Below are positions 56 through 43,086 of a DNA stretch of 43,086 bases, one piece after another (position 1 is the first letter of the stretch; each line of letters opens with the position of its first letter). Both the position numbers and the translations under genes were made by a program. This DNA comes from an uncultured Chthoniobacter sp. (lineage in GTDB: Bacteria > Verrucomicrobiota > Verrucomicrobiia > Chthoniobacterales > Terrimicrobiaceae). The stretch spans positions 1-43,086 of the forward strand of contig CAYRTN010000001.1 of NCBI GenBank assembly GCA_964427235.1. The letters run 5' to 3'. The notes under the pieces are model-generated. The model saw only the letters and a program-made list of their open reading frames with translations. It was not told the DNA's origin and did not search any database.

Positions 56-756
56 AGATCCGCACCGCACCCAAGCGTTGTGTTTGCCGTTCCCTTAATT
101 GCTTCGAATGGGAATGTAGCGTTACCTGTATTTTGAAAAAACTCAATAGACCTTGTGCCAAAGACATACAATATACCAGCACATGATAAAACTGTTATGA
201 TATTATCTGATTTTTGTGTTGCACTTGCAAAATCTAAAGATGAAAACGTGCGACCGTCAAGCAATGCCGATATAAAGAACTGTTGTGTACCCCTTCTGCG
301 AAATATAAAATAACCGTCCATATCGGTAAATGTTTTTGGATTATATGGTAAAGACGGATTATATAACGTACCAGACTCAAGAACTCTATAAACTGAATCA
401 ACTTGGTATTTCCATGAAAGAAACGCTATTTGACCAACGGAATTGTCAAGAATATTATAAACTTCCCCTGACGCTGTGGTAAAGGCATAATCTGCAACCA
501 AAGTACCCGTTAAATCGTATTTTCTTATTTTCGTAGTGCCCACAACATAATAAAAGCTATTTATATGTGTTAACCCTCTAACCTCTTCCCCTGTATCTAT
601 AAGTAAATCTAAACCACCTCTTTGACGCAATGTATATTCGCTTTCCTCCCCATATTGGTTAGGAATAGAATACATATTTTGCAATAACTGATTATTAGGG
701 TTTTTAGCACTGTTAACAGATACTTCTTTTGATAACGGTAAATTTATTTTTGGCAT
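1..756 (-). CDS. P22 gp10-like tail hub / packaged-DNA stabilisation protein, N-terminal 252 codons (gene wraps the window ends)
   Basis: ATG at 756 in a TAATG overlap with the upstream stop. Hand translation MPKINLPLSKEVSVNSAKNPNNQLLQNMYSIPNQYGEESEYTLRQRGG... stays open to nt 1 and continues in frame at 43031. FGTRSIEFFQNTG resembles P22 gp10 FGSSTIEYFSLTG. Confidence 0.8.
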   Translation of the reverse strand, partial: MPKINLPLSKEVSVNSAKNPNNQLLQNMYSIPNQYGEESEYTLRQRGGLDLLIDTGEEVRGLTHINSFYYVVGTTKIRKYDLTGTLVADYAFTTASGEVYNILDNSVGQIAFLSWKYQVDSVYRVLESGTLYNPSLPYNPKTFTDMDGYFIFRRRGTQQFFISALLDGRTFSSLDFASATQKSDNIITVLSCAGILYVFGTRSIEFFQNTGNATFPFEAIKGTANTTLGCGADLTPVAILNEIYFLSRNGLV

Positions 757-1700
757 TATTCAAACATTCCATTGCTAAACCCTACATTAATAGAGGCGTC
801 CTCAAAATCATGCAATCGTTGCAATGAATACAATCTCTCAACTTCAACACCTAAGATACTTGATTTACTGTAAAAACCATTTTGCATAGCAAGTCTTTGA
901 GCAAGACTATAAATGATAATATCATAAAATTCATTCGGAGATGGTATTGTATCAGTCGAACTGTCTAAATCATCAAAAGGTCTTTCAATGACAAGATTAA
1001 TATATTGACTCTCATTTTCTGATTGCGGATATAAAAACAACCGCCCTTCGTCTATCTTGGGCTGATAATAAAATTGTGTTGGATTGCCTGCCATAGCTTT
1101 ATAGGATAACGCTTGGTATTCATTCATAGACATCTTGCTAATGCCTATCTCTGAATTAGTGTCATATTGCACCGTAGCGTCTGAAATGCTTAAAGGTTTA
1201 GTAATGCGTGCTGTATATGAATACACCTTAGAATCAACGGTAAATGCACTTGTGAACGCACTTGATACAGTTATCACATTGCCAACAACATTACTTACAG
1301 TACGCCACACAAACACATTGCTTGAATTTAATACCCCGATTGTATCAGATATTGCAATTCCTGTACCGCTTGCAACCGTGAATGATGTATTTCCTGATGC
1401 AATAGCGACGCTTAATGTTGTTTTAACAAAATCACTTTTTAAAATAAACCTATCACCCGATTCGGATAGCGTATATTCTGATTGTCCAATCGTAGGAATT
1501 AAGACAGCACTCTCATAAGACCATAGACGCAAACCTCGCGACATAAGGTTTTTCATAATGATATTTAATGATTGTGAAGCATTAGTAATTTCAGTTGATG
1601 ATAATGTTTCGACAGGGTCTATGATAGACGCTAGCCTGTATGCTTCATAAATAATATCATTACGGGTAAGGCTAAAATTAAAGTTATTCGAGACCGACAT
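756..1700 (-). CDS. virion protein, putative head-to-tail adaptor (gp4 position, immediately upstream of gp10-like hub)
   Basis: 314-aa ORF with ATG start, translationally coupled to neighbours. Function inferred only from its position between the head genes and the hub. Confidence 0.45.
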   Translation of the reverse strand: MSVSNNFNFSLTRNDIIYEAYRLASIIDPVETLSSTEITNASQSLNIIMKNLMSRGLRLWSYESAVLIPTIGQSEYTLSESGDRFILKSDFVKTTLSVAIASGNTSFTVASGTGIAISDTIGVLNSSNVFVWRTVSNVVGNVITVSSAFTSAFTVDSKVYSYTARITKPLSISDATVQYDTNSEIGISKMSMNEYQALSYKAMAGNPTQFYYQPKIDEGRLFLYPQSENESQYINLVIERPFDDLDSSTDTIPSPNEFYDIIIYSLAQRLAMQNGFYSKSSILGVEVERLYSLQRLHDFEDASINVGFSNGMFE

Positions 1701-1902
1701 ATCCTGTTAAACTCACATCTTTTAAATTTCTTGGTCTTGGATTATCCACTGCTATTTTTTCACTCATGGCTTTAACCATTAATTCTTGTGGGTGTTGTTC
1801 ATACCAGTATTTGTAATAAACACGCTTGCCGTCATAAGTCATACGTGTTTGCGATGCAAGTACCACTTGACCGCTAACATCGCATTGCACTTTATAATCC
1901 AT
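1684..1902 (-). CDS. hypothetical small late protein (72 aa)
   Basis: ATG start in a TAATG junction with the upstream gene, inside the late operon. No recognisable motif. Confidence 0.6.
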   Translation of the reverse strand: MDYKVQCDVSGQVVLASQTRMTYDGKRVYYKYWYEQHPQELMVKAMSEKIAVDNPRPRNLKDVSLTGYVGLE

Positions 1903-2237
1903 TAAATATCTCTAACGATTAATTTTAAATCTCTGCTACCGCCTTCGGTACTTGCAGAAACAATTTTAACCCATTCACCGATTGCAGAAACATCATTAAC
2001 ATTTACTTGCATAATGCTATTAGCAACTACTGGAATTGATAATGCAGTACCAGCAGAAATATAATGTGCTTTATACGTTCCTGTCTGTGTCTTTGATGAT
2101 GTCAATGTTACCGTTGCACCTGTCATTGTTGCAGGGAACTCAATACCTACAATATTACCAGAGACAACACCTACCGCAGTAGATGTTGTTGCACCGTTGG
2201 CAATATTAACAGCAACACTTGCTGAACGATTCGCCAT
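1902..2237 (-). CDS. hypothetical beta-rich virion protein (111 aa)
   Basis: ATG at 2237 in a TAATG junction. The Ala/Thr/Val/Ser/Gly-rich composition resembles small capsid or connector accessory proteins. Confidence 0.6.
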   Translation of the reverse strand: MANRSASVAVNIANGATTSTAVGVVSGNIVGIEFPATMTGATVTLTSSKTQTGTYKAHYISAGTALSIPVVANSIMQVNVNDVSAIGEWVKIVSASTEGGSRDLKLIVRDI

Positions 2238-2935
2238 TAGAACTCTCCGAACGCTTGAATGTAGTTAAGTGTCATAACACGAGAAACAGCAGAAGCATTT
2301 TGAACACCATAAGAAAGTGTCAAATTTGCTGTTGGTAAGTTAGTCAATGTTGTTTGTGTTGCGGTTTTAACACCGTTAACATAAACCTCAACTTTTGTAC
2401 CGCCATCATAAAAGAACCCAATCTCAATGAACGTATCATCGGCAATGGTTGCAACACTTGATAATGTTGTCAATGTGCTACTATTGGCTAAAATAAGATT
2501 TACTGCCCCTGCACCACTTGGCTTTAAAAAGTAAACACCATCAGAAACAGCAAGAGGCGTAGTATCTGTTTTTTGCAATCCAAACACAAGAGACGCATTG
2601 TTTGAGTTGTTTACTTTTAAGCGTGTCTTAAAAACAAGTTTTTTACCTGCTTCAAAAACAAACGGCTCAATCGTTGCCGAGTTGCCACCCTTCCACTGCA
2701 GAAATGTATTTTCAGAGTTAGTTGCACTGTTAGTCAGTGTCAATAAACCGCCCTTGCCCGATACAATAGAAACAGCCCCAGTACCAGTAACAGTATAATT
2801 CCCCGAGGCATATTCATTGCCCCATTGGCTAATACCATAATATTTTGTTTGGTCTAAGTTGGGAAAGTCGTTATAGACTCCCCCTGAACCTGCCCTAACA
2901 TTCGTCAATCCACTTGGGAAATGTGTTATTGCCAT
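2237..2935 (-). CDS. concanavalin/LamG-like jelly-roll protein, putative capsid cement/decoration protein (232 aa)
   Basis: Start moved to the internal ATG at 2935 (MAITHFPSG...), 5 nt after the capsid gene stop. The longer track ORF would overlap the capsid gene by 98 nt. The motif pattern FVFEAGKKLVFKTRL...DDTFIEIGFFYDGGTKVEVYVNG is LamG/ConA-like. Confidence 0.5.
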   Translation of the reverse strand: MAITHFPSGLTNVRAGSGGVYNDFPNLDQTKYYGISQWGNEYASGNYTVTGTGAVSIVSGKGGLLTLTNSATNSENTFLQWKGGNSATIEPFVFEAGKKLVFKTRLKVNNSNNASLVFGLQKTDTTPLAVSDGVYFLKPSGAGAVNLILANSSTLTTLSSVATIADDTFIEIGFFYDGGTKVEVYVNGVKTATQTTLTNLPTANLTLSYGVQNASAVSRVMTLNYIQAFGEF

Positions 2936-2939
2936 TAAA

Positions 2940-3857
2940 TTAAGCTCCTGCTGAACCGTAAACACAACGCCAGTCATGGTATGCAAAAGCATAAGACTCA
3001 TAACCCATTGTATAATCCACTTTTGTAGAGAAGTCATAATCGTTGTCTAATTCCAAAGGATTAGCAACGAAATGAACAAGACCCTCTCCCATATTGAAAT
3101 CATTGAGAACGAACCATGCGTCCTCGTCTGTCAAATATGGTGATGTAATAATCTCAAGAGGATATTTTGAACCAACGGCGTTTAAATCATTATCCGCAGT
3201 ACCAACACGCAAAGACGAATTGATAATACGTTCTGCCTCTGCCCAGTTACTCGAATGAACAAGTAATTTTTTAGGTTTTAGCATGATTTGTTTACCGTTA
3301 GTATCCTTAGCTTTGAGAATATCAGTGATAACTTGCTCAATGCCTGCCTCTGATAAATCACTATTACCACTTGATATAAGATTGCCTTGAACCGAACCAG
3401 TAGCGGACGGGTGACTTGCTGTAATCATAGCAACAGCATCTCCGTCTGTACGTGTAGCGGTAAACGCATTATTAAAGATTTGATGTCCCAAAATTTCTTT
3501 GGTTTCACGAAATGAATCGCCTAAGCGAATTGCACGCTGTGTTGTGACTTTCTTATCTTGTCCATATTGCTTTTCTTCTTTGGTAACACCAAAGCCTAAA
3601 GCAACAGCATACATATATGTTTTGACTGTATAGCCTTGTTTCTCTGAAGCAATCGGCGTTGCACCGCCTTCAGGTTTTACTTGTGCCAAGCCAAAAGACG
3701 AAGCAGAAACAACTTCTTCATATTTGTACTTTGCAGTCATTTTATCAAACAACTGTGGACAAATCTCTTTGTTGCGGTTGTAACCCATTTCAAGCCAAGC
3801 ACGAATACCTGGTTTTTGATTTTTGGGAAAATTACCCGTTGTAATAATGTTAACCAT
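2940..3857 (-). CDS. major capsid protein (HK97-fold type, about 305 aa)
   Basis: Size, position after the scaffold-like genes, and the pattern ...SASSFGLAQVKPEGGATP...YAVALGFGVTKEE... are typical of small HK97-like capsid families. Confidence 0.7.
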   Translation of the reverse strand: MVNIITTGNFPKNQKPGIRAWLEMGYNRNKEICPQLFDKMTAKYKYEEVVSASSFGLAQVKPEGGATPIASEKQGYTVKTYMYAVALGFGVTKEEKQYGQDKKVTTQRAIRLGDSFRETKEILGHQIFNNAFTATRTDGDAVAMITASHPSATGSVQGNLISSGNSDLSEAGIEQVITDILKAKDTNGKQIMLKPKKLLVHSSNWAEAERIINSSLRVGTADNDLNAVGSKYPLEIITSPYLTDEDAWFVLNDFNMGEGLVHFVANPLELDNDYDFSTKVDYTMGYESYAFAYHDWRCVYGSAGA

Positions 3858-8583: not shown

Positions 8584-9835
8584 TTACAGCCCCTCGCCAG
8601 TCATCGTATTCATAATCGTCATAATTATCATTTTTAAATATTTTACGCAACGCTTCTGTCGCATACCGCAAAGAGTCTATTAAGTGATTGTTTTTATCCT
8701 CTAAAATCGGCAACACCTCGTTAGTCTGTCTATTAACTTTATAACTGTACGTTGCCAATTCTTCGATAACGTGCTTGCATCTGGGGTGTACGATAATATC
8801 ATAGGATTGTAACCATGCTATACCCTCCTCGACACTGCCCTTACCCTTTGACGCCTTCATAAGCTTGGGGAATCCATTATTGTTTAAATGCGATATAGTT
8901 TCAGGTCGTGCCGAATCAGCGTACATAATCCATCGGTTAGCCTCGGGAATTGCCATAAATAAATCAGGTATATCAACAATCTCACAACCTATTTTATATG
9001 CCTCATAGTCAATATAAAGCGTCTTGCAATTGATATAGCACCGCACTGCACAAGTTGGGTCAATCGCATAACCCCAATCAGCACCAAGCCTAAACATAGC
9101 TTGTTTGTCTGTCTCAAACTCTTTGATTGTCCAATTATTAAACACCCTTGTGTTGGCATTGTAATCATGCTCTCCAAGCCATATATGCCCATAACGTCCT
9201 GCTTGCGTCTTTAGGCAGTGCAACCGTTCTATTTCCGCCTCCTTGCTAAAAAAGGGGTTTTTATAATAGTTTACATGATGCACTTGAGTGTTATTGTTAG
9301 CGTGTTGTATATAATCCACATCGACAGCATCGGTTGTGTGTCTGCGATTCATCAAAAAAATCAATCTTGATCCGTCTTTACGGATAGTAGGCTTAAGCGT
9401 ATCAAGCACAGACCGTGATATATCCTGTGCCTCGTCTATTAAACATATATCGTATGATTGCAAGCCCTTGATGTTGCCCTCATTGCGGTCAAAACCCATA
9501 AAATCAATTTGCGAACCATTAATAGCCTTAATCTCTGTATCCATTATCTTAAAAAACGAATTAAGTTGTAACTCTTTGATTGCCTCGACAAATACTTGTT
9601 TAATTGATTTATTAATTGCACTCATAAATTGACGACCGCATATCAGGCGTAAGGGTTTTTGCGTCAACAATAGCGTTATATCTCTAACGGCTGTTGTTGT
9701 TTTCCCACTCGACCTGCCTCCATGCACAACAGTATTGCGTATCGGTCTGTAAAAAATAGACCCATAATCAGGACATACAGCCCATGCAGGACGTTGATAA
9801 TGGACTACATTATTTGTCATCTTTTGATTCGACAT
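8570..9835 (-). CDS. terL: terminase large subunit
   Basis: Walker A VHGGRSSGKTT, Walker B ICLIDEAQD, and C-terminal nuclease region GADWGYAIDPT...HLIDSLRYA. Confidence 0.9.
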   Translation of the reverse strand: MSNQKMTNNVVHYQRPAWAVCPDYGSIFYRPIRNTVVHGGRSSGKTTTAVRDITLLLTQKPLRLICGRQFMSAINKSIKQVFVEAIKELQLNSFFKIMDTEIKAINGSQIDFMGFDRNEGNIKGLQSYDICLIDEAQDISRSVLDTLKPTIRKDGSRLIFLMNRRHTTDAVDVDYIQHANNNTQVHHVNYYKNPFFSKEAEIERLHCLKTQAGRYGHIWLGEHDYNANTRVFNNWTIKEFETDKQAMFRLGADWGYAIDPTCAVRCYINCKTLYIDYEAYKIGCEIVDIPDLFMAIPEANRWIMYADSARPETISHLNNNGFPKLMKASKGKGSVEEGIAWLQSYDIIVHPRCKHVIEELATYSYKVNRQTNEVLPILEDKNNHLIDSLRYATEALRKIFKNDNYDDYEYDDWRGAVNVGY

Positions 9836-10286
9836 TATGAATTATTATTTTTGGTAAATTTAAAAAATTAATGTCTGTTTTATTATCAAACGCCTTAATA
9901 TTAATATGCTTACCGATTAATTCGAGTGCTTTCAAAGAACCTGTAGAATCAAATTTATAAAGATATTCACCGTTTTCATTTTTTAAAGGCACTCGTTCTT
10001 TGCCTTGAAATTCAGTTAATAACTCTTTTTCTTCCATGCACCGATTGTGTACTTTTATTGCTTGCGATAAAACCCATTCAGCGTTTATTTCTAGTTTTTG
10101 TTCTCGTTCAGCTTTGAGTTTTGATAGATATTCTTGTATAGCAGGTTTTAGCAGGTTTTCTTGAGCAATGACTCTTGCTGTATCCTCGCTATACCCTGCA
10201 CGGATTGCAGCTTGCGTGCCATTCAAATCAATAAGGTATTCTTTACAAAATAACTCTTGCTTATCTGTAAGTTTTTTTACTGTCAT
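9810..10286 (-). CDS. terS: terminase small subunit (Terminase_2-like)
   Basis: KKLTDKQELFCKEYLIDLNGTQAAIRAGYSEDTARVIAQENLLKPAIQEYL is the classic small-terminase HTH signature. Start is ATG 10286, or alternatively 10304. Confidence 0.85.
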   Translation of the reverse strand: MTVKKLTDKQELFCKEYLIDLNGTQAAIRAGYSEDTARVIAQENLLKPAIQEYLSKLKAEREQKLEINAEWVLSQAIKVHNRCMEEKELLTEFQGKERVPLKNENGEYLYKFDSTGSLKALELIGKHINIKAFDNKTDINFLNLPKIIIHNVESKDDK

Positions 10287-10349
10287 ATATAAAAAATACC
10301 ACATACAAAAAATAAATGCAATTAATTTAAAAAATATGCAAAATAGGTG

Positions 10350-10378
10350 TTGACTTTACTCTTAAATAAGAGTATAAC
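10350..10378 (+). promoter_or_regulatory. sigma70-type promoter with operator-like inverted repeat in the spacer
   Basis: TTGACT (10350..10355), a 17-nt spacer, then TATAAC (10373..10378). The spacer holds the inverted repeat CTCTTA-AA-TAAGAG (10359..10372). Confidence 0.75.
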
Positions 10379-10421
10379 TATAAACAGGACGCAATCAAGC
10401 GGACAAATTGGAGAGACTGAG

Positions 10422-10628
10422 ATGACAAACACAACAATCACAACAGGCGATTTTGAAATAACCCATAACGGTTATGATTTTAAAATATCAAAAATAAGCT
10501 CTTATTTTGTTTTTGGGACAACTTTTGCCAATTTTAAAAACCTGCTAAAAAATCCAACAATCAAAGGCGAGCGAGCCAACGATATTCGCAGAGTGAAAAC
10601 CGTTTTAAAAAATGCGGGATTGATTTAA
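10422..10628 (+). CDS. hypothetical small early protein (68 aa)
   Basis: ATG 10422 is preceded by GGAGAG. The track ORF begins at a GTG inside the promoter, so the later start is preferred. Confidence 0.65.
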   Translation: MTNTTITTGDFEITHNGYDFKISKISSYFVFGTTFANFKNLLKNPTIKGERANDIRRVKTVLKNAGLI

Positions 10629-10686
10629 TGATCCCCCAACAACAGACAGGTAACCCCTGCCACAATTTAACACAAGGATAAATAAG

Positions 10687-10947
10687 ATGTATGAGTTAAA
10701 TGAGTTAATTGCCTTCCGCAAAAAAAAACAACAAAACCAACCATTAACACCAAAAATGTTAAATATTTTTTGTAAAAAATTACAGATTCAAGAAAAATTT
10801 AAGAAAAAAAACAATGTTAGAGGTCGATATTATTTAGAGCAGTCTATTTTTATAGACAACCATAAAAGTTTAAATTTAGTTAAGATAAAATTTAACGAAA
10901 TTGAATATTACACTGATTTTGATTTTTTTGTAAAAGTTAAAATATGA
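10687..10947 (+). CDS. hypothetical basic small protein (86 aa)
   Basis: ATG preceded by AAGGA. Lys-rich. ATGA-coupled to the following HTH gene. Confidence 0.65.
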   Translation: MYELNELIAFRKKKQQNQPLTPKMLNIFCKKLQIQEKFKKKNNVRGRYYLEQSIFIDNHKSLNLVKIKFNEIEYYTDFDFFVKVKI

Positions 10948-11138
10948 CCCCCCAATCTCAAATCCAAGCCCTAGAGTCCTTAGGGATAACACGGTATCGC
11001 ATCGCTTGCGATACTGGTATCAGTCAAGACCAGTTAAGACGCTGGTTACGTGGAGATAAGCCATTTAAAAGCAACAGCAATGTAAGCGTTTTAAATGAAT
11101 ATTATGAAAAGTTAATGAAGGGAATTAACGATGTTTAA
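10944..11138 (+). CDS. small HTH DNA-binding protein (64 aa), Aca-like position
   Basis: LGITRYRIACDTGISQDQLRRWLRG is a helix-turn-helix signature. Last gene of a three-gene operon that ends in a terminator. Confidence 0.7.
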   Translation: MTPQSQIQALESLGITRYRIACDTGISQDQLRRWLRGDKPFKSNSNVSVLNEYYEKLMKGINDV

Positions 11139-11143
11139 AATTT

Positions 11144-11171
11144 AGGGTGGTATTTTTACCGCCCTTTTTTA
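11144..11171 (+). terminator. rho-independent terminator
   Basis: AGGGTGGTA-TTTT-TACCGCCCT stem (one G:U pair) followed by a T6 run, 6 nt after the stop codon. Confidence 0.8.
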
Positions 11172-11335
11172 TTGCTGTAAAAAAAAGAAAACCCCAAGCG
11201 TACACTATTTAAGCGAAGAGGCTGGGGGACTATTGCATTTAATATGCCAAACATTTTAAAAAATGTCAACCCCCTTAACCTTATTTTAATCAATCCATGA
11301 TATATTTGTATCATAGTAAATGTAAGGAGTTAGTT

Positions 11336-11551
11336 ATGTATAAATTCATTATTAAATTTGACGGTATTTTCAATAAAATCTTAATTGCAAGCATATTAAT
11401 TTTCATAGGTTTTGTTTTGGGTGGGTGTAGTCCACGCCAGCATATGCAACCCGATTTAAGCGATTCTGTGCCAAGTAATGCACGATTGCAATACGAGGCT
11501 ATGCAAAAGTTTAAAGTCCAGCACAAGGCGTTTTATGAGGGTTTGCGTTGA
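11336..11551 (+). CDS. small lipoprotein (71 aa)
   Basis: ATG 11336 after AAGGAG. Signal peptide ILIASILIFIGFVLGGC with lipobox L-G-G-C. Confidence 0.65.
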   Translation: MYKFIIKFDGIFNKILIASILIFIGFVLGGCSPRQHMQPDLSDSVPSNARLQYEAMQKFKVQHKAFYEGLR

Positions 11552-11678
11552 TTGTGGTTAATTCCATTTTGGAAAATACCACTGACCGAAATCAATGTCG
11601 GTTACCTTGCGTTAATTTTACCGTGGTCGGAATCCCGACATCGATGTAAACCCTATTTTTTTGCAGTTTTTACCCATC

Positions 11679-12072
11679 TGTCACGACCGACTCGTGACAC
11701 TTAGCCCCTAACTCGTGACACCACTCGTGACACCTACCATGGAATAACCCTTTGATTTATAAGGGTTTTTTTTACCTGTCACGAGTGTCACGACCGACTC
11801 GTGACACCACTCGTGACACTTAAGCCCTTGATTTATAAAGGATTTTATCTTATAATAATAAAATAATAATAAAATAATAAATAAATAGATATAGATAGAT
11901 AGAGAGAGGTATTTATAATTTTGTATCTATATCTATCTATCTAAATGACTCGTGACACTCGTGACACTCGTGACACCATATAACAAACCTTTGATTTATA
12001 AAGGATTTTATATAAAAATACCTGTCACGAGCTACTCGTAACAGGTCGTGACACTCGTGACACCTGTCACGG
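11679..12072. repeat. iteron-type origin of replication
   Basis: About 15 copies of CTCGTGACAC or its complement TGTCACGA in four clusters. Forward copies start at 11691, 11712, 11724, 11798, 11810, 11949, 11958, 11967, 12045 and 12054. Reverse copies start at 11679, 11777, 11786, 12023 and 12065. Three copies of CCYTTGATTTATAARGG are also present. The region abuts the primase-helicase stop codon. Confidence 0.8.
11842..11945. other. AT-rich putative DNA-unwinding element inside the origin
   Basis: ataataataaaataataataaaataataaataaat followed by (TAGA)n, then about 20 nt, then (TCTA)n. Flanked on both sides by iteron clusters. Confidence 0.6.
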
Positions 12073-12073
12073 A

Positions 12074-14602
12074 TTATGACTTGCTGTCATGTTTAAATTT
12101 TAAAACATAATATCTTTTTCCTAAAAATCTCATGTGAATCATGCTCTCCGCGTCTCTATGCCGTTTCAAGGTTTCAACAAATCCTCCTGACCATGAGGAA
12201 TCTTTAAGCCACTTTCTGATATGGGTATTATTTTCGATGCCAAAATAATCCTGTTGGCAATAAATGCCGTACTTAGATAGCGTTAAAATAGCCTCGTCAC
12301 GGCTTATCGCTATATCGTTGGCATTACCACCAATGACTGATAACAAGTATCCTACGGTGTGATTTTTACGTCCCGATGCACCTTCATAATTAACGTGCTG
12401 TTGCATGATGTGTTCAAACAATAAATCTGATTCGTTTTTTTCAACCTCTGATGATTCTGTAAAAATGTTTTGATATTGAATAAGATAGTTTTTGATTTCT
12501 AAATCTGTTGCGATGCGTCCATTAACTGCTGTCCATGAACAAGCAAGCAATGTGCCTATCTGGTCTCCATTGCGTGCATTACCGCCATACAGAGTAGCAA
12601 CAACTGGACTAAAATTATCAATATTTTTTAATATTATTTGTGTGTTTTGTATAATCCAAATAAAAAAACTATCGCATAATTCGTCTGTTAGAATTTGCCA
12701 AGCTAATTTTAATTTGCCATATCGTATTTTATCATTATCTTTAATTACCTCAATCAAAGTAACCCTTGATATATCTGCTTTATTTTTAAGTGCTGGCTGT
12801 ATTGCGGTAAAATAAAAACACGAGCGGACTTTAAAATTAGTAACTGTACCACCTGCACTACCCTTGTAAATCATACCTCGCTTTGATGATGATGATGATG
12901 TTCTTGCAAGTTCTAAAACCGATTCAATTTTTGATGCTGATGCTTGAGAATTAGATTCTGCCTCTTCATAAATCACTGATAAAGCGTCTGATGCAAGTGC
13001 CTGCCTGATGCCAGCTTCTGTCGTCCCTAATTCTGGATACATACCACGATTGGCAACGATTGGAGAGATTATATTATTCTGTATTTCAGATTTACCACTC
13101 CCCGATTCACCTGCTACCCAAACATGCGGTCTCCATTTTAATACTCCGCATATTTGAGATGCAATAGACCACCCAAATAATAACTCACGGTCAAAATCTG
13201 AATTTTTAAGATTTAAATGATTAAATATCGCACGGATTTGCTTGTTTTCTGCGATTGTAGAGGGGTTTTCTGATTTTAGGTCAAATGGTTTACCTGTTAT
13301 ATAAAAGTTCTTAGATTTGTAATTTTGCATATTTTCACGCTTGCCATTCTCAAAAAAAGAATCGCCCGCATTAACGATAGTATTATCACCCTCTCGCCAC
13401 ACGCCACGCCCCCTGATGCGTTCCATGTCAAAAAACGGCTTTGTATATGCTTCTTGGATAATATCATCGCACGCCTGTAACATGTCGGGGCGTTTCCCTG
13501 CTTCATAGGCATAATTTGCGTCCCAGTATGATTTTGGTGCGATGCGGTAAAGGTTTTTTTCTGACATCTCAGATGTTGTCATGTCAATAATCCGATTACA
13601 TGAATACACAAGAAAATATATTTTATCATTGTCCGAACCGATAATCTGAAACGGCTTTACAGGCGGTAACACCTCTGATGATGCAATAGCAGGGAATATA
13701 AACGCATTAACGTCACCACCGTCACAATGAAAATCATTAAAATCATATCCACTGCGTTCATTGCGTGGTGCTGTGATGACTTCGAGTCCTGTGTCTCTAA
13801 ATGATTTGTAGCGTTTATTAATTAGTTCCTGTGATTTAATGTTAGTGCTATGGTCATTATCCGCACAAATAATGATGCGTGAAGCTGTGTATTTCTTTTT
13901 TATGAGTTCTGATACTGCCACAAGATTTGATGCGTCCATTGCACAAATAACGGTGTTTCCTGTCGATGCGTGTAGGGTTGCACCTGTGGAGTAACCCTCG
14001 CACAATAAAATAACATCATCATTACCATTAATGCGATAAAAACAACCTTGCTTCCGTCCTGATGCGTCTTCGGTTGGTTTAAAATAACGCTTTTCAAAAT
14101 TACCGTCGCTGTTTTTGTATATTTTCTGCCAATTCCACACCTTGCCGTCTATATCTGACAAAGGTATGTATAAAATGTTTTTAAAAATCTTAACATTATG
14201 GTATAATGCTACTGACTTGGCGGTCAAATAATCGTGGGTATCGCTATCGGATTCTCTCGTAACGAGTTCTGATGCTTTACCCGCAACAAATTCATGTTGT
14301 TGTTGCAATAGTTCGGATTGTTCTTTTTGTTTTTGTTTGATTGCGTCCGAGATTTCTTTTTTCTGCAATGGTGACAATTCTTTATAATTTTTACTTGTGA
14401 ATGTTTGCGTAAAACCAGCCCTCCAGCAACCGAACGCCCCAAATAAAACATCGTTGTCAAGATTAAAACTGTACCACCCTGACTTGTCTTTTTTGTTGCG
14501 TGCGTGCGTGCTAAACCTGACAAGCTTACCAATCTGTATGGTATTTACGGTTAATCTGTATGATTGCATTGCTGTAATTGCTTCTTGTATATAATCACTC
14601 AT
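12074..14602 (-). CDS. bifunctional Toprim primase / SF3 (D5/P4-alpha-like) helicase (842 aa)
   Basis: Toprim motifs LLCEGYSTGATL and IIICADNDHS. Walker A VAGESGSGKSE and Walker B VIYEEAES in the C-terminal half. Confidence 0.85.
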   Translation of the reverse strand: MSDYIQEAITAMQSYRLTVNTIQIGKLVRFSTHARNKKDKSGWYSFNLDNDVLFGAFGCWRAGFTQTFTSKNYKELSPLQKKEISDAIKQKQKEQSELLQQQHEFVAGKASELVTRESDSDTHDYLTAKSVALYHNVKIFKNILYIPLSDIDGKVWNWQKIYKNSDGNFEKRYFKPTEDASGRKQGCFYRINGNDDVILLCEGYSTGATLHASTGNTVICAMDASNLVAVSELIKKKYTASRIIICADNDHSTNIKSQELINKRYKSFRDTGLEVITAPRNERSGYDFNDFHCDGGDVNAFIFPAIASSEVLPPVKPFQIIGSDNDKIYFLVYSCNRIIDMTTSEMSEKNLYRIAPKSYWDANYAYEAGKRPDMLQACDDIIQEAYTKPFFDMERIRGRGVWREGDNTIVNAGDSFFENGKRENMQNYKSKNFYITGKPFDLKSENPSTIAENKQIRAIFNHLNLKNSDFDRELLFGWSIASQICGVLKWRPHVWVAGESGSGKSEIQNNIISPIVANRGMYPELGTTEAGIRQALASDALSVIYEEAESNSQASASKIESVLELARTSSSSSKRGMIYKGSAGGTVTNFKVRSCFYFTAIQPALKNKADISRVTLIEVIKDNDKIRYGKLKLAWQILTDELCDSFFIWIIQNTQIILKNIDNFSPVVATLYGGNARNGDQIGTLLACSWTAVNGRIATDLEIKNYLIQYQNIFTESSEVEKNESDLLFEHIMQQHVNYEGASGRKNHTVGYLLSVIGGNANDIAISRDEAILTLSKYGIYCQQDYFGIENNTHIRKWLKDSSWSGGFVETLKRHRDAESMIHMRFLGKRYYVLKFKHDSKS

Positions 14603-14924: not shown

Positions 14925-16354
14925 TTATTTCCTCGTGATTTTTGTTTTTCTTGTCTTGCTCTCATTGTGCCGACTGCCCAGCCGTGCGGATTAGAATAGC
15001 CACGAGATACACCCAAAGCAATTAATTCTTGCAATGATTGTGCTTGTGCTTGTTCTTTCTTTTTTTGAAATTTTATCTGCGTCTGTATGTGTTCATAATG
15101 CTCAATGGATACTGATACAAGCTCCCCTGCAATAACAACTTGTTTGCGTTTTTCTGTAAATTCTATATCCCAGCCACAACGCTCACAAATACGTTCTTTG
15201 GTTAAAAAATGATGTTTACAATTATCGCACTGGGTGATTCGTTCGGTAATTTCTACTTCACGCTTGCGTTTTTTAACTCCATCAAGAGACCACTCACGGT
15301 CTTCACAAGGCAAGCCGTGAATTGCCACGTTACCCACAAAATCAAGAATAGTGCAATGTGTTTTACCCTCGCACGCACGCAAGCCACGCCCCATTTTTTG
15401 TAGATAACTAACGATTGATTTTGTTTTTGTCATGTCGATAATTCCATTTACAACTGGTATATCTGTACCTTCTGAAATAACACTACATGATGTTAAGCCG
15501 TGTATTTCGCCACTGCCTAGGCTATCTATTGCTTTTTTGCGTGCGGCAGGAGTCATTTTACCGTCAATAGACATAAAATTATAACCTGCTTCACGGAATT
15601 TTTGTGCTGCAATCTCTGCCATTTCAACTGTTGGATAAAATCCTATTGTAGGCTGATTGTGTAAATATTTACGATATTCTGCGACTTCGCACCCTACAAC
15701 CGATTTAAGACGTTCTGCCATTTCTTTGGGGTCATAATCACCATTATTAGCAACCCTAACATCTAATAAATCCACTGCAAGAGGTTGAGAAAATATCTGA
15801 TACGGCGATAAATAACCTTTCTTAATGAGTTCTTTCATTGATGCACCGTGCTTATCGCCACAAACCATATGAGAGAATATTTTATCCAATCCTGTACCGT
15901 CTGTACGTGTTGGGGTTGCTGACATACCTAAGATGCGAGCGTTAGGGAATCTTGAAAAAATATATTGCCACTGCGACGCAATAGAGTGATGCCCCTCGTC
16001 TGCTATAATTAAATCAAATGTTGGCAGGGGGGCATTGTTTTTAATCCGTGATACGAGTGTTTGCACTGATGCCACCATAGCAAGTTCATTACCCATTTTG
16101 ACATTAGGAATAATTAATGAATGTTTAACGCCCATTGATAAATATGCCCGAGAAAACTGGTCAAATATTTCTCTTCGATGCACTAAAGCAAGGACACGGC
16201 GGTTATTTTGTGTCATTTTATGCGTGATGTATGATGCGATTGCTGTTTTGCCACCGCCAGTGCATAGCTGAGCCATTACTGATTTGTGTTTTTGCTCGAA
16301 GGCTTCACGAATACCACCAACTAAAGACTCTTGATGTTCACGTAATATTATCAT
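14918..16354 (-). CDS. SF2 (DEAH / ResIII-type) DNA helicase with C-terminal zinc ribbon (478 aa)
   Basis: Motif I CTGGGKT, motif II IADEGHH, motif III MSATPTR. CDNCKHH...CERCGW Zn ribbon. Confidence 0.85.
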   Translation of the reverse strand: MIILREHQESLVGGIREAFEQKHKSVMAQLCTGGGKTAIASYITHKMTQNNRRVLALVHRREIFDQFSRAYLSMGVKHSLIIPNVKMGNELAMVASVQTLVSRIKNNAPLPTFDLIIADEGHHSIASQWQYIFSRFPNARILGMSATPTRTDGTGLDKIFSHMVCGDKHGASMKELIKKGYLSPYQIFSQPLAVDLLDVRVANNGDYDPKEMAERLKSVVGCEVAEYRKYLHNQPTIGFYPTVEMAEIAAQKFREAGYNFMSIDGKMTPAARKKAIDSLGSGEIHGLTSCSVISEGTDIPVVNGIIDMTKTKSIVSYLQKMGRGLRACEGKTHCTILDFVGNVAIHGLPCEDREWSLDGVKKRKREVEITERITQCDNCKHHFLTKERICERCGWDIEFTEKRKQVVIAGELVSVSIEHYEHIQTQIKFQKKKEQAQAQSLQELIALGVSRGYSNPHGWAVGTMRARQEKQKSRGNKW

Positions 16355-16539
16355 ACTTCCCCCTTATTTTTGTTAATAAAATCAATCATTGCGTTAAGTG
16401 TTTTTAAAGTTGGATTATCGCTCTTTTGTCTTAAAAAATCGTAAACTTGACGGTATGTAATGCCAACTTCTTTCGCCACAAGGCAGGGCGGGTATCTTTT
16501 TAATTTTTTTCTGATTAAATCTATATCTATTTTTTCCAT
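16351..16539 (-). CDS. small HTH regulator (62 aa), first gene of the replication operon
   Basis: LVAKEVGITYRQVYDFLRQ helix-turn-helix. ATGA-coupled to the helicase gene. Confidence 0.7.
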   Translation of the reverse strand: MEKIDIDLIRKKLKRYPPCLVAKEVGITYRQVYDFLRQKSDNPTLKTLNAMIDFINKNKGEV

Positions 16540-16573
16540 ATTAACCTTTTATAAATAATTTTAAATTATGGTG

Positions 16574-16602
16574 TTGACATTATGAGATAAATCTCATATA
16601 TT
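16574..16602 (+). promoter_or_regulatory. consensus sigma70 promoter (recombination operon) with shared operator
   Basis: TTGACA (16574..16579), a 17-nt spacer, then TATATT (16597..16602). The spacer holds the inverted repeat TGAGAT-AA-ATCTCA (16583..16596). Confidence 0.8.
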
Positions 16603-16607
16603 GTCAA
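16579..16607 (-). promoter_or_regulatory. face-to-face sigma70 promoter (replication operon) sharing the same operator
   Basis: On the minus strand, TTGACA (16607..16602), a 17-nt spacer, then CATAAT (16584..16579). The same inverted repeat lies in this spacer. Confidence 0.7.
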
Positions 16608-16629
16608 TACTAAAATACAAGGGGAATAA

Positions 16630-26382: not shown

Positions 26383-26603
26383 AACTCTATTGTCATTACA
26401 CAGACGAAGTAAAATTAAATAGCAAGATAGTATCATTTTATTCAGACGGTAGCGGAGCGAGTGTGTTTAGCCGTGATGCTATGGGTAGCGTGTTAAATGC
26501 AGAGGGGGAATACCTAAGCACTGATTATTTTTTAGATGCTGGATATTGCTTTTTTGCGTATTTACCAAAAACATTTAAAATATGGCATGAGCAGAATGTA
26601 TAA
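26379..26603 (+). CDS. hypothetical small protein (74 aa)
   Basis: ATGA coupling. No motif recognised. Confidence 0.6.
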
Positions 26604-27249
26604 AAGAAAAGAAGTCATAGGGAATTGCACGCTTTATTTGGGTGACAATCGTGATGTCATGTCCGTTATTGATTTGTCGGTGGTTGGTTCGTGCGTGACA
26701 GACCCTCCGTTCGGATTAGGTAAAAAATGTTTAGGCGGTAGAATAAATAGCAATAGACTAATAGTTGGTATGGTAAGAACTGAAATACAAAAAATAGAAC
26801 AATGGGACGCATCTACTCCGTGCATAAAATTTATTTTAAATTTAAACGTCCCAACCATAATATGGGGGGGTAATTATTTTGATTTACCTCCAACACGATG
26901 TTTTTATGTTTGGGATAAAAAACAACCCTTTAATTTTTCTTTTGCAATGGCAGAATATGCGTGGACGAATTTTGACAAAAATGCAAAGATTTTTAGATTA
27001 CACCCTGTAGGATTAGCAAAAGAACACCCAACACAAAAACCAATTCAATTAATAAAATGGTGTATTGACCAGTTACCTAAGGATTGCACAGGAACGATAT
27101 TTGACCCTTTCATGGGTTCAGGTACAACAGGTGTTGCTTGTGCAAAAATAGGGCGTTCTTTTATTGGCATTGAACTTGACGAGGATTATTTTAATATCGC
27201 TTGCAAGCGTGTTGAAGACGCATACAGACAAGGCGATTTATTCCTATGA
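26596..27249 (+). CDS. beta-class N6-adenine/N4-cytosine DNA methyltransferase (CcrM-type order of motifs)
   Basis: Motif [11 protein letters not shown] precedes motif [28 protein letters not shown]. Start is ATG 26596, or alternatively 26587. Confidence 0.85.
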
Positions 27250-42385: not shown

Positions 42386-43086
42386 CTTCGACCTCTAAGC
42401 GTATTTTGCAACTTGCAATACTGATAGAAACATCATTAGATACCTCAAATTTATAAATTCTTTTTCTTGAAATACCTAAATTTCTAAATTCAATCTTGCG
42501 TCCGTATTGCGTATTTGTGCCGAGTGATAGACTTCTTTTTGTGCTATAGGTAAAACCACCGTCATCGGAATATGACATTTCTATTATTGGTGTAATATCT
42601 ACCCCCGCCGTTCCTGTGGTTATGACAGGCTGTATCGCATGATGTATAACACGTTTGCCGTCACCTTGAATAACGGTTGTGGTAAATACTCTCTCAATGT
42701 CATCGCCATCATCGGTGGTATTATCTTGATTGATAAAATAAACCTTGTTACCGATTGCACAAATTGTGTTCTTAGTGTTTTCCTCTAAGAACGCATTTTG
42801 AACAAATCGAGGTCTCCAGTATGTATAACCCTCGCTTGTTCTTTTATGCCATTCTAAGGTCTGTAAATTACAACATACTGTAAACCCTGCGTCCTCTACG
42901 GTAATACCATAAAACCATTGTCCATTTTCACGGAATGAAAACCCAATCGCATTAACAGCACTAATATTTTGAAATAATTTATCAATGCTTTCAGTTGATA
43001 TTTTTGTAAAGCTATATCCACTTATTTTATAAACAAGACCGTTTCTTGATAAAAAATAAATCTCATTTAAAATTGCGACAGGCGTT
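42375..43086 (-). CDS. P22 gp10-like tail hub protein, C-terminal part (continues from 1..756; 43032..43086 duplicates 1..55)
   Basis: Open frame from the window end down to the stop at 42375. The C-terminus ...GRKIEFRNLGISRKRIYKFEVSNDVSISIASCKIRLEVEDDE parallels P22 gp10 ...WKRVGRIRRLIGFKLRVITKSPVTLSGCQIRLE. Confidence 0.8.
   Translation of the reverse strand, partial: TPVAILNEIYFLSRNGLVYKISGYSFTKISTESIDKLFQNISAVNAIGFSFRENGQWFYGITVEDAGFTVCCNLQTLEWHKRTSEGYTYWRPRFVQNAFLEENTKNTICAIGNKVYFINQDNTTDDGDDIERVFTTTVIQGDGKRVIHHAIQPVITTGTAGVDITPIIEMSYSDDGGFTYSTKRSLSLGTNTQYGRKIEFRNLGISRKRIYKFEVSNDVSISIASCKIRLEVEDDE
43032..43086. repeat. 55-nt exact terminal direct repeat, copy 2
   Basis: Identical to 1..55. 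Confidence 0.95.

Follow-up and report, generated by a model that had tools for sequence, protein, structure and literature searches.

A predicted self-limiting early operon with exchangeable, possibly counter-defence cargo genes in a phage genome from an uncultured Chthoniobacter assembly

The acr-aca (anti-CRISPR) operons are defined by a small helix-turn-helix (HTH) protein, an inverted repeat in the promoter and diverse, linked small genes, and in the published Aca circuits the inverted repeat lies inside the core promoter (PMC9410906, PMC13551039). Aca2 and Aca1 also bind RNA motifs situated in leaders and between genes (PMC13551039). Here we describe an operon of three small genes, orfA, orfB and a gene for a 64-amino-acid (aa) HTH protein, in a 43,086-nucleotide (nt) contig of an uncultured Chthoniobacter assembly (CAYRTN010000001.1, referred to below as the window), which is a whole phage genome. 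The operon design is that of the acr-aca operons and is as such already known (PMC9410906, PMC13551039). We read the operon as a self-limiting early unit with exchangeable cargo of the counter-defence type and, taking this statement as a whole, find it somewhat more probable than otherwise. Its two parts differ in strength: sequence comparison makes a self-repressing circuit highly likely, and a counter-defence role of the cargo, proposed by analogy, is tentative and rather doubtful. The coordinates of all features are given in Table 1.

In acr-aca operons the anti-CRISPR genes usually precede, and share a transcript with, the gene of a small HTH or RHH autorepressor; the named families of these are Aca1-Aca14. 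The layout that the original prediction had likened to acr-aca operons is indeed present. A sigma-70-type promoter has a palindrome inside its core, the gene of a small HTH regulator lies in the same operon as the cargo, and in related loci a single regulator family stands beside many small, unrelated cargo genes. The leader and the stretches between genes contain conserved motifs that recall the RNA sites of Aca1 and Aca2 (PMC9410906, PMC13551039). In other respects, however, the locus departs from the acr-aca pattern. No known anti-CRISPR, nor a homologue of one, is found in the cargo. The HTH protein resembles Aca proteins of solved structure in generic fold and has no sequence match to them. 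Its gene sometimes precedes another gene and is sometimes the first of the operon. The leader motif is constant across operator classes, which means that it is no target of the variable recognition helix, and the HTH family is split into at least eight operator specificities.

The Cro and CI proteins of lambdoid phages are small HTH dimers of the XRE fold which bind palindromic operators overlapping promoters and fall into heteroimmune specificities. The present family is like them in that, in mosaic phages that recombine with one another, operator and recognition helix have co-evolved into separate specificity classes, and 434 Cro is one of the fold matches of the HTH protein. It is unlike them in that the operator is single and not tripartite and the unit adjoins the small-terminase gene terS, not an immunity region. 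Furthermore, neither an integrase nor a divergent, CI-like repressor gene was seen among the open reading frames (ORFs) scanned, which were not all ORFs of the window, and no relative of the HTH protein was found in the GTDB genome contigs (185,579 species-representative bacterial genomes). The controller (C) proteins of restriction-modification systems are likewise small, XRE-type HTH proteins and autoregulate through a palindrome in their own promoter, and C.Kpn2I is among the fold matches, but here no endonuclease or methyltransferase gene is adjacent; the neighbours are terS, the two ORFans, a lipoprotein gene and the origin and primase. Finally, Arbiol, Comeau and Krisch are said to have described in 2010 'promoter-early stem-loop' elements of T4-type phages, mobile regulatory cassettes that reportedly flank shuffled early ORFs. 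The locus shares with these cassettes short conserved regulatory sequences (promoter, leader and an intercistronic linker with a hairpin) around highly variable small early ORFs, and here too the regulatory sequences could be homology arms for modular shuffling. The T4 elements are many and dispersed, whereas here each genome has one autorepressor and one promoter.

The predicted promoter, TTGACT and TATAAC separated by 17 nt, is present in the window. So is the 6-2-6 repeat CTCTTA-AA-TAAGAG (10359-10372) between its hexamers, which turned out to be the inner part of a larger, perfect 8-2-8 palindrome whose final two bases are the first two bases of the −10 element. Each of these elements alone is statistically unremarkable. 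About 59 sites in the window reach a 10/12 promoter match, and a scan gave 30 promoter-like sites as compared with 24.5 ± 6.2 in shuffled sequences. Perfect 8-2-8 palindromes number 6 in the window and 1.17 ± 1.13 in the shuffles, and the operator palindrome is unique in the window at three or fewer mismatches. The decisive evidence is the comparison with related phages: we take the promoter and palindrome to be real because the promoter, the position of the palindrome and the terminator are conserved there and the palindrome arms co-vary.

The 64-aa HTH protein has 27 homologues (53–91% identity), all from metagenomes, and a scan of metagenome contigs for further HTH loci added four. Co-variation was scored over eight arm pairs in a set of 12 loci (a 10-locus set was also scored). 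Throughout the 12 loci the palindrome stays at constant spacer positions between fixed −35 and −10 elements, with varying inner bases. Of the arm-pair cells, 92.7% are complementary, compared with 22–52% in controls with a slid partner column; both sides have changed in six of the eight arm pairs, all four base pairs are seen at the fifth position, and none of 500 shuffles reached the covariation score. On the protein side helix 2 is nearly invariant (0.2 bits) and helix 3 is variable (1.25 bits) at its exposed positions, the core residues L31 and W34 being fixed. Eight classes of helix 3 pair one to one with eight classes of half-site (Table 2). When two of the operators were searched for across all loci, each was found as one copy per locus and was confined to loci of the matching class. 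As far as sequences can tell, this match of operator and helix class is the strongest non-experimental evidence that the HTH protein binds the palindrome, and the position of the palindrome within the promoter spacer implies repression. The number of cleanly co-varying classes appears to go beyond a routine member of the acr-aca group.

The genes between promoter and regulator are, by contrast with the regulator family, exchanged from locus to locus (Table 3). We count about 20 unrelated cargo families across about 16 distinct loci, and an all-against-all BLASTP of the cargo proteins gave five families common to more than one locus and no others. L001 and L002 have an identical HTH protein (P0001) and the same promoter with different cargo. 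The same cargo is also found with different operator and HTH classes, namely orfA in the window and L015, and a 167-aa protein in L002 and L027. The slot that holds orfB in the window, between a conserved linker and the start of the HTH gene, holds a 48-aa family in L001, L003, L031 and L032. These distributions are evidence, at the level of sequence, for movement of cargo between operator classes through conserved arms, which is not routine for the acr-aca design.

Table 1. Coordinates of the operon and of neighbouring features in the window
Feature	Position	Strand	Remarks
Divergent control region	10287-10349		A/T-rich; conserved across loci with different terS types
Probable terS promoter	TTGCAT 10321-10316; TGgTATTTT 10298-10293	minus	leftward; 17-nt spacer
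−35 hexamer TTGACT	10350-10355	+	TTGAC invariant in 12 loci
Predicted operator TACTCTTA-AA-TAAGAGTA	10357-10374		perfect 8-2-8 palindrome inside promoter spacer; overlaps −10 by 2 nt
−10 hexamer TATAAC	10373-10378	+	TATAAT in most relatives
5′ leader motif GGACGCAATCAAGCGGAC	10387-10404	+	weak 3-bp stem-loop; nearly invariant across operator classes
Ribosome-binding site GGAGAG of orfA	10410-10415	+	read from sequence
orfA	10422-10628	+	68 aa, basic (pI 9.9); exchangeable cargo, no known family
Intercistronic linker	10640-10689	+	short GC hairpin (10645-10661) and ribosome-binding site of next gene
orfB	10687-10947	+	86 aa, lysine-rich (pI 9.7); 21.8% GC vs 35.4% for the genome; exchangeable cargo
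HTH gene	10944-11138	+	64 aa, XRE-type, predicted autorepressor; start overlaps orfB stop as ATGA
Intragenic hairpin CGGTATCGCA-TCGCT-TGCGATACTG	10992-11016	+	10-bp stem within HTH coding sequence
Intrinsic terminator	11144-11171	+	9-bp stem (11144-11165), 4-nt loop, T-run; conserved in L001 and L023
Lipoprotein gene	11336-11551		71 aa, lipobox LGGC; beyond the operon terminator
Primase/helicase gene	12074-14602	minus
Second small HTH ORF	16351-16539	minus	62 aa; first gene of leftward helicase/primase operon

Table 2. Classes of recognition helix and operator half-site in the HTH family
Helix 3	Half-site	Loci
S/NQDQLRRW	TACTCTTA	window, L001-3, L024
N[QE]KTLCNW	TACTGTAA (three different central dinucleotides)	L004-7, L010-14, L017
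NQMTLSNW	TACTAAAC	L015
PKMQLCNW	TAGTATAA	L008
TQQSLHNW	..TCTAA	L026
PQMVLSFV	TACTAAAT	L027
SEATLHRV	TACTTTTA	L031
DSGILCRV	imperfect site	L021/22

Table 3. Cargo genes upstream and downstream of the HTH gene (lengths of the encoded proteins in aa)
Locus	Upstream cargo	After the HTH gene
window	68 + 86	none
L001	82 + 48	none
L002, L027	167	none
L004 / L006	215 / 193	none
L008	none	123
L010	113 + 101	96
L012	74	100
L015	68 + 77	contig end
L021	150 ... 80	none
L022	194	none
L023	122 + 132	47
L024	145	none
L026	142 + 80	none
L031	70 + 48	contig end (partial ORF)

The three ORFs had been predicted with lengths of 68, 86 and 64 aa; all are present, with the start of the first lying one base from where it had been placed. 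That the 68-aa and 86-aa proteins belong to no recognisable family was borne out by searches of Pfam, PHROG and NCBIfam. A search among billions of proteins found a sole homologue of the orfA product, P0029 of L015 (93% identity); P0031, a second match in the exhaustive HMMER search, was discarded as a spurious repeat protein. The orfA and P0029 genes differ by 12 synonymous and 5 non-synonymous codons, and this synonymous excess indicates that orfA is a real gene under purifying selection. Structure prediction, one of the checks proposed, gave for the 68-aa protein three strands followed by two helices at moderate confidence (AlphaFold; predicted local distance difference test score, pLDDT, 68), and the fold search matched nothing. 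The orfB product is an ORFan, with no homologue but itself among 5.8 billion clustered proteins. One cargo protein of the set is RuvC-like by a PHROG match, and for six proteins of related loci, cargo or neighbours, no source annotation gave an informative name.

Two repeats touch the cargo genes. Just after orfA, the sequence ATGATCCCCCAA (10628-10639) duplicates the first bases of the HTH gene, ATGACCCCCCAA (10944-10955), and looks like the scar of an insertion of linker and orfB ahead of the HTH gene. A further perfect 8-2-8 palindrome, AAAATAAG-CT-CTTATTTT, lies within orfA at 10491-10508 and contains the CTCTTA and TAAG bases of the operator in everted order, a likeness which may be coincidence.

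The variable cargo is flanked by sequences that are conserved at the DNA level. The leader motif is relocated to the front of the second gene in L010 and L011, and in L031 a 7-bp hairpin takes its place at the same position. A 15-mer of the motif gave at least 120 matches in IMG/VR, two of them with promoter context and the rest by chance. We also considered a leftward promoter that would use the leader motif as its −35 element (TTGATT 10398-10393, 16-nt spacer, TATACT); this was dropped because the motif travels with the downstream gene in L010 and L011 and a terS promoter with better conservation is found farther to the left. The linker is 92% identical to that of L001 and L003 despite differing genes on either side, and the same linker is present in L031 and L026; as a stable structure, its hairpin is not significant in the window (z −0.12). 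The third conserved segment is the first 80 nt of the HTH gene, which are 90% identical even to L012.

Within these 80 nt of the HTH coding sequence lies a hairpin with a free energy of −18.3 kcal/mol (z −5.25). Across 13 loci its pairing is kept in 100% of cells, with one compensatory change (L024, where Cys22 becomes Ser) and three changes of G-C to G-U, and its rare Arg codons CGG and CGC are preserved. An invariant hairpin at this place is not routine for the acr-aca design. It may be an additional RNA-level control element; nothing ties it to the HTH protein here.

The conserved module is also set in very different genomes. In every contig with enough flank, the HTH gene lies just downstream of a small-terminase gene of divergent orientation, and contigs that extend far enough also show replication genes on its other side. 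The surrounding genes include portals of at least four types (SU10, P22, Phage_portal and T7 Head-tail_con), terminases of the Terminase_3 and Terminase_6 types, and replication genes of the Toprim/AAA_25, DnaB or Prim-Pol kind. In a DNA alignment of the window with L001, its closest relative, the module and a portion of the primase gene are all that aligns, with identities of 87% for promoter and leader, 92% for the linker, 89% for the HTH gene with its terminator and 93% for the lipoprotein gene; no alignment is obtained for orfA, orfB or the terminase genes. Judged from these alignments, the HTH module is an island of homology common to otherwise unrelated phage genomes, which is likewise not routine for the known acr-aca design. 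In the window it lies, as predicted, at the late/early boundary, between terS, the first late gene, and the primase/helicase gene.

The HTH protein itself was modelled by AlphaFold as four helices with high confidence (pLDDT 91), helix 2 being residues 17-24 and the recognition helix 3 residues 28-36. It has a sub-threshold Pfam HTH_3 match and matches PHROG phrog_4779, 'transcriptional regulator', at 6e-6; the NCBIfam matches, to HigA and to the HTH portion of AimR, are all weak. Profile searches against Aca families had been proposed for it. A profile built from the 28 HTH proteins was run against the sequences of all PDB chains, which cover the Aca families with solved structures (the presence of Aca11 was confirmed, that of other Aca entries assumed from the literature), and returned spurious matches alone (E ≥ 1). 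The Foldseek matches are all weak (E ≥ 0.2) and comprise Aca11, HNF-1, HipB, the N-terminal domain of AcrIIA15, C.Kpn2I, HigA and 434 Cro. The best, Aca11 (9lx2; E 0.22, template modelling (TM) score 0.62, 18% identity), is no better than HipB, C.Kpn2I or Cro. The model thus describes an XRE-fold repressor that, by comparison with solved structures, is not placeable in a named Aca family.

We propose that on infection the host sigma-70 RNA polymerase would start at the promoter at 10350-10378 and make orfA, orfB and the HTH gene as one message ending at the terminator. The HTH protein would then accumulate and bind the 18-bp palindrome in the promoter spacer, presumably as a dimer, and block further initiation, which would limit the cargo to a single early burst. 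The terminator would insulate the unit from the sequences to its right, namely the lipoprotein gene, the origin and the replication operon that runs towards it. The cargo would occupy an open slot bounded by two conserved stretches, the leader to the left and the opening ∼80 nt of the HTH gene to the right, and homologous recombination between co-infecting relatives would swap the cargo while the operator stays paired with the matching recognition helix. Crossovers in the two arms would keep this match because both partners lie outside the exchanged segment, the operator on the far side of the left arm and the recognition helix beyond the right arm. If acr-aca operons and phage diversity hotspots are a guide, the products of orfA and orfB would most likely be counter-defence or host-takeover proteins.

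Several observations weigh against this interpretation. In L008 the HTH gene and promoter occur without upstream cargo, so the regulator may have a role of its own. The HTH gene, predicted to be terminal, is the last gene in the window but not in L008, L010, L012, L023, L029 and L032, and in L008 it is the first. As an HTH gene with an in-spacer palindrome is also found at the replication and recombination genes of the window, the design alone is no sign of counter-defence. Searches of 23 cargo proteins against Pfam, PHROGs and NCBIfam gave no match to known anti-CRISPR or anti-defence families, and for this phage no host defence system can be named. Moreover, orfA and orfB encode basic proteins, unlike many Acr proteins, which are acidic. 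Among the cargo of relatives, the 145-, 194- and 215-aa proteins are acidic.

Some of these points would suit the main rival explanation, a Cro-like core developmental regulator that times the early/late switch at the divergent terS region, the cargo being incidental morons on a strong promoter. Whichever type of terS is present, the HTH gene and promoter always adjoin the conserved control region of that gene, the module is better conserved than adjacent essential genes, and both the cargo-free upstream region of L008 and the recurrence of the HTH/palindrome design at the replication operon fit such a role. We still regard it as unlikely: the operator is single in the genome and lies within the promoter of the HTH gene itself, its centre is ∼80 bp upstream of the probable terS start with no overlap of the terS promoter, and eight specificity classes have no obvious reason in a core late-gene regulator. 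The brief, self-limited burst proposed above is better suited to neutralising pre-existing host proteins than to lasting exclusion, which speaks against cargo and downstream lipoprotein, under the same regulation, being aimed at competing phages as superinfection exclusion or phage-encoded defence. A 71-aa lipobox-bearing lipoprotein gene follows the operon in most loci, and exclusion is a role of some small phage lipoproteins, among them T5 Llp and Cor. Diversity hotspots contain defence and counter-defence genes alike (bioRxiv 10.1101/2024.10.15.618418). However, the lipoprotein gene lies past the terminator and is constant rather than variable. The PADLOC matches of two cargo proteins (E 1.6e-4 and 4e-4) are marginal and of single proteins only, for which reason cargo as defence genes was set aside. 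We consider exclusion of other phages, or phage-encoded defence, quite unlikely.

A type II toxin-antitoxin pair in reversed, HigBA-like order, with the toxin gene first and then an HTH antitoxin repressing its own promoter, is very improbable. HipB and HigA antitoxins are among the fold matches, five of the 28 HTH proteins have weak NCBIfam HigA matches (best E 0.0021), and antitoxins of the HigA/HipB type bind palindromes in their own promoters. This reading fails because the partner is not conserved: the neighbour upstream is unrelated in nearly every locus and absent in L008, in place of the cognate toxin expected beside the HTH gene in a HigBA or HipBA system. In addition, the four helices of the modelled 64-aa protein leave no extra toxin-binding domain, and no cargo protein matched a toxin family. 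It is hardly credible that the promoter and palindrome are chance sequences in AT-rich intergenic DNA and the small ORFs no genes at all, even if 10/12 promoter-like sites are common in the window genome and orfB is of very low GC (guanine plus cytosine) content and without homologue. The conserved position of the palindrome and the co-varying arms in 12 loci, the one-to-one pairing of half-sites and recognition helices, the codon differences in orfA (12 synonymous versus 5 non-synonymous) and the conserved ribosome-binding sites and terminator largely refute chance for the promoter, the operator, orfA and the HTH gene. A self-limiting early unit with exchangeable cargo is the interpretation that we retain.

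The phage genome assembly is circularly closed, with a 55-bp terminal direct repeat (1-55 and 43032-43086) and 43,031 unique bases, a GC content of ∼35% and no tRNA genes found; about 25 contigs carry the same phage. Among GenBank phages, a DNA search with 10280-11200 gave no match and tblastn with the 64-aa HTH protein gave only matches of E ≥ 0.05. An Rfam scan of 9800-12100 yielded nothing credible. To the left of the operon the late operon begins on the minus strand with terS (Terminase_2, E 4e-31), followed by terL; to the right lie, in order, the lipoprotein gene, an iteron field, the terminator of the leftward replication operon and the primase/helicase gene. The window TerL has 421 aa. 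That of L001 has 860 aa (489-3071 of that locus) and a faint LAGLIDADG match, which suggests an intein or homing-endonuclease insertion that the window TerL is without. A DNA methyltransferase gene at 26536-27249 (phrog_67, E 1e-40), in the low-GC early region 15 kb from the operon, is the sole methyltransferase gene found and a conventional candidate for anti-restriction elsewhere in the genome.

The divergent control region contains two ATGCAA motifs upstream of the rightward −35 element. The ATG of terS at 10286 has no Shine-Dalgarno sequence and lies 6 nt past the −10 element of its probable promoter, an arrangement kept in L001, L004, L008 and L015. This suggests a leaderless late terS mRNA, and the true start of terS is probably 10286, not the 10304 of the ORF list. 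On the other side of the operon, a 99-nt stretch (11176-11274) is missing from L001-L003, L023 and L024. On its minus strand are a promoter-like TTGACA-17-CATATT (from 11269) and a hairpin with a T-run; a small RNA was considered here and rejected, its fold not being significant (z −1.16). The lipoprotein gene, kept in most related loci at 50–90% identity, has an upstream inverted repeat ATGATA-N6-TATCAT, and its product may be an exclusion or envelope factor.

The non-coding field of ∼400 bp directly upstream of the primase/helicase gene (11679-12070) looks, from its repeats, like a replication origin. It contains about 15 copies of a 9-10-nt iteron, (A)CTCGTGACA(C), in both orientations, two identical 21-nt palindromes (at 11679 and 11786), a 36-nt repeat present three times and a GATA-rich inverted repeat. 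The second small HTH ORF belongs to a module (16351-16610) with divergent, overlapping promoters, TTGACA-17-TATATT (+, from 16574) and TTGACA-17-CATAAT (−, from 16607), which share the perfect 8-2-8 palindrome TATGAGAT-AA-ATCTCATA (16581-16598). Its rightward promoter faces exonuclease, RecT and SSB genes. Paralogy of the two small HTH proteins of the window (64 and 62 aa) is unsupported (hhalign probability 3%).

A bolder interpretation, which we think rather unlikely in its entirety, would make the module a mobile 'plug-and-play' expression platform common to phages that are otherwise unrelated but belong to one host community. Conserved homology arms, formed by leader, linker and the 5′ part of the HTH gene, may let any phage take the cargo of a rival. 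A resident or co-infecting element with the same HTH protein may silence the burst of a newcomer, a form of 'anti-anti-defence' which a switch of specificity may escape, so that phage-phage conflict would drive the split into at least eight orthogonal pairs. The invariant intragenic hairpin may add a layer of control at the RNA level.

If the circuit works as proposed, the HTH proteins would constitute a previously unnamed Aca-like regulator family, and the cargo slot, with its ∼20 orphan families, would hold as many candidate inhibitors of host defence or host functions from an uncultured phage lineage. The about eight natural pairs of small repressor and operator, differing at few positions of helix and half-site, would be of use for following the evolution of HTH specificity and as orthogonal genetic parts. 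The arrangement would also show how operator and repressor stay matched across intervening DNA that is freely exchanged.

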